Positions 41,838-51,036 of a stretch of 64,000 nt of DNA are shown here, one piece after another. Position numbers and translations under genes: made by a program. How positions within the stretch are numbered: position 1 is the stretch's first letter; the number at the start of each line of letters is the position of its first letter. The DNA is from an uncultured bacterium. Lineage in GTDB: Bacteria > Krumholzibacteriota > Krumholzibacteriia > LZORAL124-64-63. A model generated the notes under the pieces. It did not search any database and was not told where the DNA came from. It saw only the letters and a program-made list of their open reading frames with translations. The stretch lies in the NCBI GenBank assembly GCA_963727525.1, contig CAVSGO010000007.1, forward strand, positions 1,472,001-1,536,000. Direction: 5' to 3'.

Positions 41838-41899
41838 GGCCAACCGCGACCCGCCGGACTGGCAAGCTCATTTTCGAGTGCCCAAGTACAGCGTCCGGA

Positions 41900-42069
41900 A
41901 GAGCCATCGGAGCGCCGGCTAGGCGTTCGGAGTGCGCGACACCGACCACTTGTCGGCGCCTGGAACAATGCCAAGGCAACCTGCAGCGTTTGCTAGGATG
42001 ATCGCTGCGCCCCGTCGGGCCGATCATCCCGCTAACGATCCTCTACGAGATTGGCGATATCGATCGGTT
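41900..42069 (+). mobile_element. Scrambled, diverged fragment of the IS110 element at 45517-46402
   Basis: 41900-42013 resembles 45960-46076 (non-coding end); 42015-42069 resembles 45554-45608 (transposase); order is permuted. Confidence 0.85.
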
Positions 42070-42594
42070 AGCCAGCAAGCTCAAGACGCGTTCGGCGGTC
42101 ACGGCGGGCGGTTCAGCCGACGTGTCGAGGAAGCACCCCGACGGGATGGCGCGACCATTGAACTTCGAGTGCAGGGCCGCTACGCGCAGCGCGCCCAATG
42201 AGCCGCTTTCACGACCCGCGTCGCGCGCGATCGCAACCTGCACCCGAGGATGCAGCACGCACAGATGCCACGCGATCTGCGCGCCGGCGAACATCTCACG
42301 ATACTCCGCCAGCGCCTCCGGAGGTGATTCGTGAATGGTGGCGTCGATCACCACGTTGAGCCCAGCGCGCCGAGCCAAGATCACGCTTGCCAGAACCTCT
42401 CGGTGGACGACTTCGCGTTTCTGACGGTGCTCCACTGTCCCGAATGCGCCGCGGTTCTTGCCAAAGCGACGCGGCCAGATATCATCTTCACTGACGCGGC
42501 ACCACCCCCCACGCGACTGAAGTAGGCGCGCGATCGTGCTCTTGCCACTGCCGCAAGTCCCCGTGAGGACCAGGACCTTCAAGCCCTGCGCCAT
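42043..42594 (-). CDS. P-loop kinase (AAA_33-like)
   Basis: VLVLTGTCGSGKST, VSEDD, NVVIDAT, LDTS. Confidence 0.85.
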   Translation of the reverse strand: MAQGLKVLVLTGTCGSGKSTIARLLQSRGGWCRVSEDDIWPRRFGKNRGAFGTVEHRQKREVVHREVLASVILARRAGLNVVIDATIHESPPEALAEYREMFAGAQIAWHLCVLHPRVQVAIARDAGRESGSLGALRVAALHSKFNGRAIPSGCFLDTSAEPPAVTAERVLSLLANRSISPIS

Positions 42595-43510: not shown

Positions 43511-44044
43511 TCAGACTGCCGGCAGATCAGAGGTGCGGCCGAGATCGAGACGCATGGGCTGTTGCATGAGTGATGACCCCGGCCGAAGCGGCTGCGGCTC
43601 CCCGGCCGGCCGGAATCCCGCCCGCGCATACAGCCGCCTGGCAGGACTATCGCCGTCCGTCACCTCCAGTGCGACTTCTCGCGCCCCCACGTCCCTCGCC
43701 CAAGTGATGACCGCGTCCAGGAGGCGGCGCCCCACGCCCCGCCCACGATACTCCGGCGCAACCCACACCTGATACAAATGCACCGCCGTCGGCTCGGACG
43801 GGTCGACCCGCCCCCAAGCGAGCGCGATCGCCTCCGCGCCGACCAGCGCGACGAGCGGCAGATCCGTCGGCGAGTGTACACCCGCCGCCAGACGCCGCTC
43901 CCATTCAATATCCGGGCGCGCGATCTCCCGCGCGCGCGTGCTACTGAAGGCGTCCGGCGACTCCTCGAGTGCACGGAGCCTCAGTTCGCGATACATCTGC
44001 CACTCGTGCGCGCGAAGACGCCGGACGAGGGCCGTATCAGTCAT
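43511..44044 (-). CDS. GNAT N-acetyltransferase
   Basis: LRLRALEESPDAF, WVAPEYRGRGVGRRLL, ARRLYARAGF. Confidence 0.92.
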   Translation of the reverse strand: MTDTALVRRLRAHEWQMYRELRLRALEESPDAFSSTRAREIARPDIEWERRLAAGVHSPTDLPLVALVGAEAIALAWGRVDPSEPTAVHLYQVWVAPEYRGRGVGRRLLDAVITWARDVGAREVALEVTDGDSPARRLYARAGFRPAGEPQPLRPGSSLMQQPMRLDLGRTSDLPAV

Positions 44045-44120
44045 ATCTCTGTGATCGTCCTATCACCATGGTCCAAAATCCATAGGTCCACCTGCGTCGC
44101 ATTCGCGGTCGTCTTCGCGC

Positions 44121-44627
44121 CTATCGCTTTCTCTTCCCCACGCCGGGCACGGCGGCGACTTGTTTCATCCACGCCGCGATCTGGCGTTCGTCGAGATCTT
44201 CCACGGATTCGAGTTCCACGCCGCGCGTGGACTTGCCCATCGCCACCGGCGTCACCGGCGGCACCGGCGTGAGCGTCGCGCCGTTCATGAACATGAGCTT
44301 GACGTGATTGGCAAAGCCACCGCAGCAGAAACACCAGCCGTCGCCGACGCCATAGTACGACATGCCCCACTTCACGGACCTCTGCAGGTCCGGAAGCGTC
44401 TCGGCTGCCAGGGCATCGATTCTCTCGGCGATGCCGCGCTGCGGTTGCGGCAAGCCGGCGATATAGGCAAAGACCGGCCTGTCGCCGTCCGCTGCCTTCG
44501 CCGGGCTTGCTTTGCCGGTAATCATGGATTCCGGCAGCGCCGTGTCAGCCCGGCCTTGCACCGGCGCGCGCTTGGCCGTATTCCGTACCGCCGGCTTCGA
44601 GGTCCGGTCTGGGTTGCGGGCGGGCAT
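44121..44627 (-). CDS. DUF1801 (YdhG-like) protein
   Basis: VFAYIAGLP, VKWGMSYYG, HVKLMFMNGATL. Confidence 0.85.
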   Translation of the reverse strand: MPARNPDRTSKPAVRNTAKRAPVQGRADTALPESMITGKASPAKAADGDRPVFAYIAGLPQPQRGIAERIDALAAETLPDLQRSVKWGMSYYGVGDGWCFCCGGFANHVKLMFMNGATLTPVPPVTPVAMGKSTRGVELESVEDLDERQIAAWMKQVAAVPGVGKRKR

Positions 44628-44786
44628 GGTAGTCTCCTGCAGATTCGAAGTCTGTCAACTTGACGACATACATTCAGATCCAGGCGTGAAGATACCCGAC
44701 GAAATTCTACACCAACGCGTCGCCAGACCCCACAAGTACATCAAGACAAGAAGTCGAATTCTTGCCCGATTACTCGTTATCGTTTT

Positions 44787-45383
44787 CTATGCTCTCGCCG
44801 GCTCGTACGTGGCGATGACCACGCCGGCCGATGAAGTCACGCATTCCGTCAATCGGAGCGCCAACTTGGCTTGCTCGGAGAAGAGCCGACGACCGGTGCC
44901 GAGAACCAGAGGGTGGATCATCAGCAAGAATTCGTCGATCAAGTCAGCGGGCAACAATGCCCGAATCAACTCCCCACTGCCCATGATACCCAGCACACCA
45001 TCCGTCCGGGCCTTGAGTGCTCCGACCGCCACCGGGATATCGCCACGCAGCAGCGTCGTGTTCGGCCACGGTAGTGGTTCCCTGAGCGTGGTCGACACGA
45101 CAAACTTCCGCGCCTGATTCAGCCCATCCTTGAATGGCCCACCCTCACGGTTCCAGTGACCCAGCAAGTCGTCGTAGGTCCGCCTTCCGAACAGCCACCC
45201 CGCCAATCCACCCCCAGCCGCGATCCGCTGGCCCATCACCTCTTGCACCTCGTTGCCAGCCGTCGCGGACCGTCGAGCCCACCCCCCTTGCATGAAACCA
45301 CCGCGAGTATCTTCGTCCTGGCGGCCAGGCGCCTGCATGACCCCATCCAGCGTCAGATGGTTCATCACAATGATCCGACCCAC
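44787..45383 (-). CDS. Dihydrofolate reductase/RibD C-terminal family protein
   Basis: TLDGVMQAPG, LFGRRTY, GSGELIRAL...LIDE; GGGAGG RBS before GTG 45383. Confidence 0.9.
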   Translation of the reverse strand: MGRIIVMNHLTLDGVMQAPGRQDEDTRGGFMQGGWARRSATAGNEVQEVMGQRIAAGGGLAGWLFGRRTYDDLLGHWNREGGPFKDGLNQARKFVVSTTLREPLPWPNTTLLRGDIPVAVGALKARTDGVLGIMGSGELIRALLPADLIDEFLLMIHPLVLGTGRRLFSEQAKLALRLTECVTSSAGVVIATYEPARA

Positions 45384-45516
45384 GGAAGCCTCCCTTCGTC
45401 CGATCAACACCGACGTGGTGCCCAGTGGCCGCGGGGCCGCCGACCGCGATGTCGGTCCGCCGCCGCGCTCTGCCGGACTCTCACGTGGTTGCCCGCGCCA
45501 GAATGGCTGCGCGAAA

Positions 45517-46402
45517 CCTCAGGCCCTCTACCGCTTGCGCTCGGTGCCAGGCATCGGGCCGATCATCTCGCTGACGATCCTCTACGAGATTGGCGACATC
45601 GATCGGTTCCCGAGGGTCCAGGATTTCGCTTCCTACGCCCGCCTCGTCAAGTGCGCCAAGGAGTCCGCCGGTAAACGGTACGGCAGCTCCGGTGCCAAGA
45701 TCGGCAGCGCCCACCTCAAGTGGGCCTTCTCCGAAGCCGCGGTCCTCTTCCTGCGCAACAACCCTGACGGAATGAAGCTCAAACGCCGACTCGAGAAGAA
45801 GCACGGCAAGGCGAAGTCGCTTTCGATCCTCGCCCATAAGATCGGCCGTGCCGTCTACTACATGCTCAAGCGTGACCAGGCCTTTGACCTCCAGCGATTC
45901 GTGACGGCATGAAAGGGAGGGGGCGGTCAAGCAACTCGTCTAACTGGAGCCGCAACGGCAGAGCCATCGAAGCGCCAGCTAAGCTATCAGAGTGCGTGTG
46001 ACACCGATCACGTGGCGGCGCATGGAGCAATGCCAAGGCAACCTGCAGCGTTTGATTAGATGATCGCTCCGCTCCCGCAAATTTCACCTGACAAAGGTCG
46101 GACCCAATGCCCTGCCCCTTAACCGAGCCCGGGAACCAACTGGCGAGCGCCGCGCGCTCAGCCCGACTCTTGACTGGGCCGACACAAGGGCACCGATGTG
46201 TTTCTAGGTCGCGGGGCGCGAGCCTCGCAGGCTCATCACCGGTGAGCGAACCTCGATAGGTGTTTGGTGCAGGGCACCGACCTGCGCCAGTACCGAGAAA
46301 CTAAGCCGGGGCAGAAGTGATCCGCGCCGTAGCCCTCTATGCGATTGTCAAAGATCGAGACCGGATCGGATTGCCTACTTGACGGGGTGGGGCCTCATAG
46401 GT
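45517..46402 (+). mobile_element. IS110/IS1111-family remnant: transposase C-terminus (45517-45912) plus ~490-bp non-coding right end
   Basis: LRSVPGIG, EIGDIDRF, ESAGK (catalytic Ser), KIGSAHLKWAFSEAA, ILAHKIGRAVYYML; right end with TTGACG -35 and ...GGCCTCATAGGT; N-terminal DEDD/RuvC domain missing. Confidence 0.88.
45913..46402 (+). ncRNA. Putative IS110 bridge/seek RNA region
   Basis: Long non-coding right end; internal ATAGGTGTT (46256-46264) is identical to the element-end junction (46397-46405); multiple hairpins; boundaries uncertain. Confidence 0.55.
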
Positions 46403-46430
46403 GTTATGAGGTCGCGATACCCTTTTCCCC

Positions 46431-47177
46431 TTATGAAGATACACCCACCGCTGTACGCAAGTATATGTCCGACTCAAGTTGGTTTAGCATGAAGCCAGCA
46501 ACATCCGCCCTGGAAATACTCGTTGTCATAAAGTAGCTGCCCACAGATGGGCCATGTCGCGGCCAGCCCTGCTTCCGCCCGTTGGTCAGTGCGCCAGGCC
46601 GCACGATAACCCACTCCACACTGCTGCGTGCAATTATCTGTTCTTGGCGCGTTTTGTCCCAAAAGTAGAATGCCAAAATTACTGGAATTACAAAAAACGT
46701 GTAGTACGCCCCCAAGCGCCCAGTACTATCCCCGATGCCGAGTGAGGTTTCACAGATGAGGCGCGGAACCTTGTGAGCCTCCATAGCGTGCAGGATATTG
46801 CGAGTGCCTTCTGAGAGTATTCGAGTGGGGCCAAAGAACCGCTTGTGACCGAGGGCTGACAATACCGCGTCCTGACCAGCCATTGCTGCTTCCAACGTGC
46901 CCACATCAAGCACATCACCTTGGACAACGGTCAATTGGGGATTGTCATCTTTGAGCCGTGACCGATCTCGGACAAGAGCTGTGACCTGAAGGCCACGATC
47001 CAACGCCTGCGAGACAAGCATTCGACCAGTTCCACCAGTCGCGCCTACAATTAGCACGCGTGAACAAGAGTTCACAGTGTTCTCATTGGCGAGTGGCACG
47101 TGCGAGCGATGGCCCGCTCGCGCTAACGCGACCGCCAGGAGAATCGCGTACCCGACGTAGCACAGCAAATAGACCAT
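46431..47177 (-). CDS. NAD(P)H-binding (flavin/biliverdin-reductase-B-like) oxidoreductase, cassette-borne
   Basis: VLIVGATGGTG, VTALVRD, GDVLD, WVIVRPG.L, ISRADVA; AT-richer; flanked by GTTATGC and TCATAAC. Confidence 0.9.
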   Translation of the reverse strand: MVYLLCYVGYAILLAVALARAGHRSHVPLANENTVNSCSRVLIVGATGGTGRMLVSQALDRGLQVTALVRDRSRLKDDNPQLTVVQGDVLDVGTLEAAMAGQDAVLSALGHKRFFGPTRILSEGTRNILHAMEAHKVPRLICETSLGIGDSTGRLGAYYTFFVIPVILAFYFWDKTRQEQIIARSSVEWVIVRPGALTNGRKQGWPRHGPSVGSYFMTTSISRADVAGFMLNQLESDIYLRTAVGVSS

Positions 47178-47195
47178 GTTTCTATCCCCTCATCC

Positions 47196-47294
47196 GCATA
47201 ACGTCACGTTGAGCAGCGGGCGGGCTTGGCGCGGCGCTTGCGCACGCAAGCGACGTGACAAGGCCGATCCGTCTGCTCCAACTACTCGTTAGAC
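47196..47294 (-). other. Integron attC recombination site (99 bp)
   Basis: Minus strand: R'' GTCTAAC, 5 nt, L'' GTTGGAGC ... L' GCTCAAC, 5 nt, R' GTTATGC; one extra base in L'', a second bulge at 47272, terminal stem CGCTTGCG/CGCAAGCG. Confidence 0.9.
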
Positions 47295-47316
47295 CCATTC
47301 TCGTCGATACCTAGCG

Positions 47317-47769
47317 CTACTGTGCGGGTACCAGGGCTTCAAGTTTCGACTCAATGTCGCGAAACGCCTGCACATATTGCGATCGAAGATTACTCATTTC
47401 AACTGGCCGGTCCGCCCAGGTCGCCGCCGTCTGTTGCTCTAAGATATACTGCAACGAAACGCGCGTTCCGCCGGGAACGACTCCGACCATCGCCGTCCAC
47501 TGTGCGCGAGTGGTGCCGCCGATTCCCTCCAACTTCTCGGGGAATACCCTCGTCTTGGTGTACACAGTGCCGCTTGCCGAATCTACTAGGGCAATTGTGA
47601 ATCCATAATCGACAAGCAGGGCTGTCACAGCCCCAATCGCCGCGGGGGCACTGCATGAAAACACACGAGAGCGCTCATTAAGCGGCAACTGATAGCTTGC
47701 GACATGGGCGCAACCGCCCACGCCAAGAGCAACCAACGCCGTGACCAAAGCAATCTTCCATCGGACCAA
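47317..47769 (-). CDS. Hypothetical lipoprotein, first cassette gene
   Basis: TTG start after GGGAGG; signal peptide ending VGGC; bounded by GTTAGAC (47808-47802) and the complementary R'' GTCTAAC. Confidence 0.75.
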   Translation of the reverse strand: MVRWKIALVTALVALGVGGCAHVASYQLPLNERSRVFSCSAPAAIGAVTALLVDYGFTIALVDSASGTVYTKTRVFPEKLEGIGGTTRAQWTAMVGVVPGGTRVSLQYILEQQTAATWADRPVEMSNLRSQYVQAFRDIESKLEALVPAQ

Positions 47770-47801
47770 TGTAGCCTCCCAAGTATCTTCGAACTTCGCA
47801 G

Positions 47802-47905
47802 GTCTAACAATTCAGTAGCTTGACCTGGTGTATCCGTTTCCACCTGACCTGGGATATCTGATATCCCGGGTCTTTGGTATCGGGGTGGCTTGGTCTGGGT
47901 ATCTG
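47802..47905 (-). other. Candidate attI-like site with four imperfect direct repeats
   Basis: Core GTTAGAC with no attC stem upstream; plus-strand repeats TGACCTGGTGTATC, TGACCTGGGATATC, GGTCTTTGGTATC, GGTCTGGGTATC at a ~23-nt period; palindrome GGGATATC-T-GATATCCC. Confidence 0.5.
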
Positions 47906-48123
47906 GATAGCGCCACTGACGACGCGAGCGCATGCAAGCGTGCCGCACGCTTGGTGGCGCGGCGCATACTTGGCGTGTTGATGTGGCGTGATGGTATTCC
48001 CCCCTGGCCCCGCCGCGGGTCCCCACCCGTGGCTTCGTTTCGGCTGGTTGGGTGCCGGGCCGGCCCTTTTTGGGGTCGGCCCGGCTGGGGTGGAACGCGC
48101 GTCCTTTCGGTTCCCCCGCTTCG

Positions 48124-51036
<2,913 letters not shown>

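Follow-up and report, generated by a model that had tools for sequence, protein, structure and literature searches.

The stretch considered here, nucleotides 45517-46403 of a window of 64,000 nucleotides (contig CAVSGO010000007.1, positions 1,472,001 to 1,536,000, of assembly GCA_963727525.1) from an uncultured bacterium of the Krumholzibacteriota, is very probably the right-hand remnant of an IS110-family insertion sequence (IS) of IS1111 layout, which encodes a predicted bridge/seek RNA and lies at the R'' box of an integron attC site; "the window" means all 64,000 nucleotides. The 3' non-coding end of the element is predicted to encode an RNA of about 390 nt whose parts are a target loop (unit 1), a donor loop (46195-46264) and, as a third module, unit 2. 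To judge from aligned relatives, the guide code of the clade is readable in full from natural variation alone. A preliminary description of the window, which had seen the donor loop in part, proposed a bridge RNA with a donor-matching guide and two target-loop-like units; the bridge/seek RNA, as a prediction, is now backed by conserved helices and guide covariation, and the two units have turned out to behave differently.

The argument is comparative. A one-genome-per-species scan gave 597 candidate stretches, 545 of them encoding a relative, from which 80 loci were kept, and at least 120 metagenome contigs match the consensus pattern of the clade, which is large and mostly uncultured. Cultured bacteria with an intact element include Vreelandella olivaria TC10 (L066), Nitrincola tibetensis xg18 (L074), Marinobacterium sedimentorum OS208 (L080) and Halomonas sp. 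SpR8 (L079). A script anchored on the left-donor guide gathered 199 copies from the kept loci, the metagenome contigs and the window, and these form the base of the guide tests described below. The non-coding region is, over its whole length, 75% identical to its closest relative; blocks at about 46108-46312 and 46371-46406 are conserved family-wide, and both units are conserved in all aligned members (about 200 relatives). A search of plasmid DNA returned four weak partial matches only.

The ends and the target follow from same-genome copies with differing flanks. The left IS end reads AT(A/T/C)CTCAT..AGGCC... directly after TG, and the right end reads TTGAC.[..GGCCT]NATAxG directly before TG; since TG (sometimes GG) stands at both junctions, TG is the core. 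The right flanks of relatives begin GTTAG, GTTGG, GTTCG or GTTAT, and empty sites rebuilt in cassette orientation read GCCTAA-CA-AGGCGCTGCAGCTGAC...GTTAGNN; most are attC sites, having both an R'' and an R' box, in keeping with the attC targeting proposed earlier. The target is thus written ...CT-TG-TTAG... in IS orientation and CTAA/CA/AG in cassette orientation. As in the attC-targeting IS1111 elements (ISKpn4, ISPst6, ISPa21 and ISPa25), insertion is in one orientation, the right flank always being the complement of R''; the IS is oriented opposite to the cassettes and lies directly at the R'' box. At the right end of the window copy the following features stand:

46379-46384, plus strand: -35-like TTGACG near the right end
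46384-46396, plus strand: right subterminal inverted repeat GGGGTGGGGCCTC, which has its mirror copy at the left end of relatives
46397-46403, plus strand: last five IS bases ATAGG and the core dinucleotide TG (46402-03), as placed by multi-copy genomes and 33 two-ended elements
46403-46409, plus strand: target flank GTTATGA, the complement of a weak attC R'' box; the cassette gene ends at 46431 (minus strand)

Two departures from this pattern were seen. Some elements have a mixed core, in which one junction has GG and the other TG (L015, L035, L009, L013, L030, L032 and L044), as expected if a mismatched core were resolved either way. A few copies (L009, L019 and L059) lie outside attC sites and have the look of natural events, off-target or retargeted; the left guide of unit 1 (GGT-TG) agrees with the unusual left flank in L009 and L019.

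The RNA itself is recognized by helices that are kept while their letters change. The elements of the fold, all read on the plus strand, are:

45920-46070, plus strand: unit 1, the target-binding loop module, with a basal helix of 45920-45929 with 46061-46070
45946-45947 with 46042-46043, plus strand: GG with CC, the start of the inner helix of unit 1 (RNAalifold and pair counting)
46108-46313, plus strand: second RNA domain, closed by a helix of 46108-46114 with 46307-46313, holding unit 2 and the donor loop
46116-46120 with 46186-46190, plus strand: CCCUU/AAGGG helix of the second domain, enclosing unit 2
46123-46182, plus strand: unit 2, with a basal helix of 46123-25/46180-82 and 46128-30/46176-78 and an inner hairpin
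within 46123-46182, plus strand: the loops of unit 2, 5' loop GGGAACCAACU and 3' loop CGACUCUUGACU
46206-46253, plus strand: helix between the donor guides, AGGUCG (46206-11) with CGAACCU (46247-53), with variable hairpins inside it
46266-46288, plus strand: hairpin GGUGCAGG...CCUGCGCC after the left-donor guide (from RNAalifold and alignment reading, with no pair-by-pair count)

Across 41-46 diverse relatives, 35 of the 47 named pairs show compensatory double changes. Unit 1 consists of a 10-bp basal helix, an internal loop and an inner helix; compensatory changes occur in 15 of its 16 RNAalifold-predicted pairs, and when 20 named pairs are counted, 19 have changed on both sides, with 87.9% of cells paired as compared with 70.3% in shuffled alignments (0 of 500 shuffles as high) and at most 45.5% with slid partners. 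In the second domain, 16 of 27 pairs show changes in both partners, and pairing holds in 91.1% of cells, where shuffles give 83.3% (again 0 of 500 as high); this includes five of the seven pairs of its closing helix and five of the seven named pairs of the donor-guide helix, where 19 sequences are compensatory at 46209/46250. A proposed seventh pair of the latter, 46212/46246, is unsupported, being unpaired in 32 of 46 sequences. Unit 2 contributes the pair 46130/46176, with 14 compensatory sequences and a mutual information of 0.64. The conserved structure thus holds internal loops, as in bridge and seek RNAs, and its three modules have one format, in which C-U-(A)GG comes after the 5' guide and UG-NU-NGG after the 3' guide.

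The loop letters of units that serve as guides change together with the DNA. Each guide segment of the RNA was compared with its DNA partner in the 199 elements, only distinct pairs being counted, and the DNA was shuffled among elements 10000 times. The four guides are:

45938-45944, plus strand: right-target guide GTCTAAC, on the 5' side of the target loop, reverse complement of the core G and the first 6 flank bases
46045-46056, plus strand: left-target guide GCAGCGTT, on the 3' side of the target loop, with a core-like TG (46053-54), then AT
46195-46204, plus strand: right-donor guide GATGTGTTTC, reverse complement of the core G and left-end bases 1-9 of relatives
46256-46264, plus strand: left-donor guide, ATAGG, a core-like TG (46261-62) and TT, the TT being the first two target bases

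In unit 1, the right-target guide follows the right flank (70 distinct pairs, 353 identities against 336.3 +/- 5.3 in shuffles, z=3.1, 15 of 10000 shuffles as high) and the left-target guide follows positions -8..-1 of the left flank (55 pairs, 184 identities against 145.8 +/- 8.6, z=4.4, 0 of 10000), so that its two sides match opposite strands around the insertion point, as do those of the target loop of a bridge RNA. Individual elements make the same point: L012, L061 and L071 have the unusual flanks TTATAC, TTGTGC and TTCGGC, to which their unit 1 guides are exactly complementary over 7 nt, and among copies that are about 93% alike, CCAAC (L024) goes with a TTGG flank and CTAAC (L037, L059) with TTAG. 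The preliminary description had allowed that the complementary TCTAA and TTAGA of unit 1 could be a plain stem; this finds no support, L012 and L071 having altered 5' letters with no compensating change among the 3' ones, while it is their right flank that has changed.

The donor loop behaves likewise toward the two IS ends. The right-donor guide follows the left end (45 pairs, 290 identities against 262.8 +/- 5.4, z=5.1, 0 of 10000), apart from a fixed U opposite left-end base 2, where 0 of 45 match, and the left-donor guide follows the right end and core (52 pairs, 331 identities against 305.0 +/- 4.1, z=6.3, 0 of 10000); one loop (46195-46264) thus matches opposite strands of the joined ends. 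Smaller first guide tests gave the same result, and an exact 6-mer concordance scan picked out the left-donor guide only, plus a weak donor signal at 46184-89 (11/27). It was this internal copy of the right end that had first drawn attention: CCTCGATAGGTGTT at 46251-46264 and CCTCATAGGTGTT at 46393-46405 are both present as had been written, and their shared 9-mer ATAGGTGTT has exactly two copies in the window (46256-64 and 46397-405), where 0.02 are expected and 0 of 100 shuffles reached two. The reading of 46256-64 as a donor-matching guide is borne out by its covariation with the right end. Its preceding CCTC had been counted in as well and should be left out, CCU lying in the donor-guide helix (A46206:U46253, then G:C, G:C and U:A); the extra G is the first letter of the loop.

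Unit 2 differs from unit 1 in this respect. The letters by which the preliminary description defined the two units are where it had put them (GTCTAACTGG at 45938-47 and TTTGATTAGAT at 46051-61; AACCAACTGG at 46134-43 and CTTGACTGGGC at 46169-79), and support for the pair comes from family conservation, since the word shared by both units, YYAACTGG, is not beyond chance in the window alone (4 matches, 3.36 expected). Both units have the GAGCC/GGAC basal motif and a common loop format. A strict pattern finds unit 2 in 162 of 184 relatives, and at least five of the misses (L018, L020, L048, L052 and L055) align with a variant unit 2; relatives that have it range in transposase identity from 62% to 100%, and it is kept in the most distant of them, L066 from a cultured Vreelandella among these. 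Conservation as internal loops therefore holds for both units, and covariation with the insertion site for unit 1 only: the 5' side of unit 2 matches the right flank no better than shuffled flanks do (111 pairs, 480 identities against 480.1 +/- 7.0, z=0.0, 5289 of 10000 shuffles as high), nor does its 3' side match the left flank (58 pairs, z=-0.8, 7964 of 10000). When the columns of unit 2 were scanned for mutual information with those of the RNA, flanks and ends, the basal-stem pair alone stood out, with no DNA partner up to 16 nt from the junctions.

Most likely, then, unit 2 would be a conserved paralogue of the target loop that serves as a protein-binding or scaffold arm. One variant bears on this. 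In a sub-lineage, CTCAC replaces CTAAC in the 5' loops of units 1 and 2 (L121, L135, L151, L167, L173, L192 and L201, and L013 in unit 1 only), and where the right junction was found the core is often GG and not TG, while the flanks still begin TT; over 131 elements the variant is concordant between the units in 8 and discordant in 5. That both units share CTCAC although the flanks read TT points to a shared protein partner.

A less likely possibility, to which we would nonetheless give some weight, is that unit 2 works as a third nucleic-acid-binding loop, either as a fixed docking module for the attC core or as a second target loop that is seldom used. If unit 2 does read DNA, bridge recombinases can carry more than two DNA-reading loops per RNA. 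In its fixed form, which we consider improbable, unit 2 would sense the invariant attC core (G-TTAG plus T-TG) and let the complex settle on an attC of any kind, the programmable loop checking the site afterwards, or would keep a further transposase dimer on the DNA. CUAAC and UUUGA are indeed near-universal in unit 2, its format is that of the target and donor loops, its presence extends over the whole range of transposase identity down to the cultured Vreelandella, and the concordance of CTCAC suggests the same partner for both loops. Invariant letters, however, cannot covary, hence there is no positive sign of DNA pairing; the CTCAC lineages keep their TT flanks, which points to co-evolution with protein rather than DNA; and the mutual-information scan offers no partner near the junctions.

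A search for sites that unit 2 might read gave little more than background. Its predicted site has two matches with up to two mismatches in the genome of the window, against 1.0 in shuffled-guide controls, and the right flanks of 107 relatives hold no second site beyond the control distribution, only the window reaching three mismatches or fewer. Agreement with the R' box of the same attC, counted by eye at about 6 of 19 rebuilt sites, was set aside, all of it being explained by the common CTAAC, and GTC.G, which is conserved at the far left end of the target, shows no covariation with the 3' part of unit 2. Two single sites may be recorded. The 16-mer at 46469-46484 matches the predicted site at 14 of 16 positions, 66 nt to the right of the IS end and in the same orientation; it falls within the 3'-terminal part of the NAD(P)H-binding gene. 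Nothing like it is seen in 106 relatives, and its proximity is odd. An intergenic 16-mer at C7:1025253-1025268 of the same genome has one mismatch, and its right side TATGAGGCC resembles the window flank TATGAGGTC.

The preliminary description went further and took units 1 and 2 as two programmable target loops, by which one RNA would address two attC variants (YTAAC and CCAAC). It is true that no part of the target-loop format is missing from unit 2, which has GAGCC/GGAC at its base, CUAAC-U-GG in the 5' part and UU-UG-A in the 3' part, and that the letter of its loop that varies most is N in C-N-AAC, a letter variable in natural R boxes too; L067, L072 and L077 differ only there (CCAAC, CTAAC and CGAAC), and one L034 copy sits at GTTGTAC, which fits unit 2 (ACAAC) and not unit 1. 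Set against these cases, unit 2 tracks neither flank, and in the 30 distinct cases in which the units differ at N, the flank agrees with unit 1 21 times, with unit 2 five times and with neither four times. Where unit 1 mismatches its flank, unit 2 matches in 2 of the 50 cases listed, and the left-guide part of unit 2 agrees with flanks at -1 only (44 of 58, as compared with 13 of 58 at -2). Because the letters of unit 2 ignore the insertion site, the multiplexed guide fails on the very observation that had been named as decisive, and we now hold it to be very improbable.

Several points weigh against the overall reading of the element as an attC-directed, guide-carrying RNA locus. The shuffle tests, which score matches and not mere association and have unit 2 as a null control, ignore the kinship of the elements and carry no correction for phylogeny. 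The right flank of the window agrees with the right-target guide at 4 of 7 positions only, and as the left flank and left end are lost as well, the assignment of its guides rests on relatives; the site predicted from unit 1 of the window has no match with two or fewer mismatches in its own genome. About one third of elements have one guide-position mismatch to their own flank, and the handshake-like letters never vary, which places them beyond the reach of covariation. Folded as a single sequence, the RNA is no better than shuffles (z=-0.96), and an alternative GUUUC:GAAAC pairing offered by RNAalifold would sequester part of the right-donor guide. Rfam 15 has no match in 45913-46402 at E up to 10, the presence of an IS1111 model in that release being uncertain; in 44000-48500 the same scan returned five weak matches of microRNA, small nucleolar RNA and ribosomal RNA type, all outside 45913-46402. 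That there is no functional RNA at all, only chance or leftover repeats or a small protein, would suit the poor single-sequence fold, the lack of an Rfam match and the existence of short open reading frames (ORFs; 46107-46259 on the plus strand, 45866-46087 on the minus strand), but is exceedingly improbable given compensatory changes far above shuffled and slid controls and guides that match IS ends and flanks.

For a bridge/seek RNA with one target and one donor loop, the following scheme would account for the anatomy. The IS inserted into an integron attC, right at its R'' box and running against the cassettes. In intact relatives, joining the ends in an excised circle would bring TTGACN and a GATACT-like hexamer to a spacing of 18 nt in 39 of 47 distinct end pairs and of 17 nt in the other 8, a putative junction promoter like that described for ISEc11, which might drive the RNA as the 3' part of the transposase transcript. 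The 3' side of unit 1 has the sense of the left flank plus core and would thus pair with the bottom strand, and the donor loop would read the left and right IS ends as unit 1 reads the target. Both bottom-strand guides would extend two letters past the core into the partner DNA: the AT that follows the left-target guide equals the first two left-end bases of relatives, and TT takes the corresponding place in the left-donor guide, so that the guides, ending TG-AT and TG-TT, spell both product junctions. Because the AT is invariant, we infer its role rather than read it from covariation. These extensions look like the mirror image of the handshake guides of IS621, which might imply a mirrored order of strand exchange.

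How the RNA may end is suggested by relatives (e.g., L019 and L022), in which 46321-46378, between the RNA domains and the -35-like box, corresponds to a hairpin followed by a T-rich run, a pair that may mark the RNA end; in the window the same interval forms two small hairpins and has no T run.

The principle is not new, since RNA-guided IS110/IS1111 recombination, including that of attC-targeting elements, has been in print since 2024. IS621 has a bridge RNA with two internal loops, target and donor, each with a bottom-strand and a top-strand guide (PMC11208160, PMC11208158); the guides overlap at the core dinucleotide, and among orthologues they change in step with target and donor (Durrant et al., 2024, PMC11208160; Hiraizumi et al., 2024, PMC11208158). 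The clade described here shares the two loops with two guides each, the overlap at the core dinucleotide and the covariation. It differs in that its RNA is encoded at the 3' end (in IS621 at the 5' end), that the order of top- and bottom-strand guides is reversed, that the core is TG and not CT, and that long subterminal inverted repeats and an extra third loop are present; the handshake letters of IS621 stand on top-strand guides, whereas the two-letter extensions here would stand on bottom-strand guides. Transposase identity to the IS621-family match is 27.1%.

Closer in habit are ISKpn4, ISPst6 and ISPa25, IS1111-type elements that target integron attC sites and encode a seekRNA after the transposase gene (Siddiquee et al., 2024, PMC11187229). 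In the IS1111 seekRNA the top-strand match lies 5' of the bottom-strand match, and the junction promoter is the sole promoter (PMC11187229). The attC target, the RNA after the transposase gene and the guide order, top strand then bottom strand, are common to both groups. The position of insertion is not: in ISKpn4 and ISPst6 it falls between GAA and CGAATTGTTAG (GAA/CG), some 11-12 nt to the left of GTTAG (PMC13604230, Table 1), whereas in this clade it is TG/TTAG, at the R'' box itself. The RNA is also set apart by the published sizes, the seekRNAs of ISKpn4, ISPst6 and ISPa25 being 82-86 nt in the short form and 148-154 nt in the long one (PMC11187229), as against about 390 nt and three modules predicted here. 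ISEc11, of the IS1111 family, has a junction promoter from joined ends (PMC11187229), to which the putative promoter here would correspond, and like this clade a non-coding region downstream of the transposase gene; it differs in its linear, non-attC target, and identity to the ISEc11-type transposase is 24.5%. The nearest named family among plasmid records is ISGsu4 (NCBI naming), with 32.0% identity over 96% of the protein and with another target and other ends. On the Paraburkholderia plasmid AP028203.1 (L205:2209-2620), an ISGsu4-family copy has a long 3' non-coding region with the similar words TTGACTGGGCC and TTGAATGGGAT, and a TTGAC that precedes its right inverted repeat; it may be that the loop format predates the attC-targeting clade. 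No title or abstract found in literature searches describes a third loop or the TG/TTAG insertion point. What appears distinctive is a separate clade, insertion directly at the R'' box and a conserved third loop. For integron biology this would add a further lineage that splits attC sites at the recombination box, and for recombinase engineering a new family of orthologues in which the donor guides are long, the guide order is mirrored and one module is unexplained.

The protein-coding part of the window copy is much reduced:

45517-45912, plus strand: transposase gene remnant, the last ~131 codons with the C-terminal Tnp domain; stop TGA at 45910-45912

PF02371, the C-terminal Tnp domain, is the only domain in this ORF (E 3.1e-19), which aligns by tblastn to residues 247-375 of the full-length L005 protein at 87.6% identity and covers profile positions 220-342 of 343 of NF033542 with 89.1 bits, under the cut-off of 140. 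The full-length L005 protein has both PF01548 and PF02371 and reaches 211 bits with the same model (cut-off 140), which NCBIfam names "IS110 family RNA-guided transposase". DNA similarity to full-length relatives begins at 45517, that is, at residue 247 of the 347-residue L005 protein, and the DEDD (RuvC-like) N-terminal catalytic domain of IS110/IS1111 is missing; the window copy is thus the remnant of a member of that group and not a complete member. A left-end remnant upstream of 45517 was not found (best local score 23, shuffled mean 21.5), which together with the onset of similarity marks the element as truncated on its 5' side. The IS1111 traits survive on the right. A non-coding region of 491 nt runs from the stop at 45912 to the core at 46402-03, the left side of L005 being about 70 nt, and relatives have subterminal inverted repeats in the IS1111 range of 7-17 bp (e.g., GAGGCCTCTCCCT and AGGGAGAGGCCTC), mirrored in all 33 elements having both ends; the window retains the right copy only (46384-96), its own left end being lost. 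A scan found no promoter-like or terminator-like sites in the remnant. Without catalytic domain, left end and junction promoter the window copy cannot move, and it is dead.

Its surroundings are those of a cassette array. The minus-strand neighbours are small unrelated genes, namely RibD_C, an NAD(P)H-binding protein and a DUF1801 protein, with attC-like repeats between them, and the remnant therefore lies inside an array with no integrase nearby. One repeat is intact:

47178-47300, minus strand: neighbouring intact attC, with R'' GTCTAAC on the minus strand at 47288-47294

As had been noticed at the outset, this R'' is identical to the GTCTAAC of unit 1, with the qualification that it is on the minus strand, the plus strand reading GTTAGAC, in an attC-like repeat of an integrase-linked family: the repeat at 47178-47300 is 89% identical to one on contig C3, at a distance of 1 kb from the gene of the integron integrase (C3:513106-514047, L206; TIGR02249, 472.8 bits against a cut-off of 265). 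The cassettes of the window may be a cluster of attC sites without integrase, or may reflect an assembly break.

Further pieces of the element are scattered nearby and elsewhere. At 41896-42075, scrambled fragments of a second copy of the same IS type adjoin each other, 41896-42013 deriving from the interior of unit 1 (83% to 45956-46075) and 42015-42069 from the transposase gene (95% to 45554-45608). A third fragment, at C8:96821-96913 (L003, minus strand), is 83% identical to 46283-46375 and lies about 1.1 kb from an attC-like repeat (C8:95635-95719), so that wrecks of this IS occur in more than one cassette cluster of the genome.

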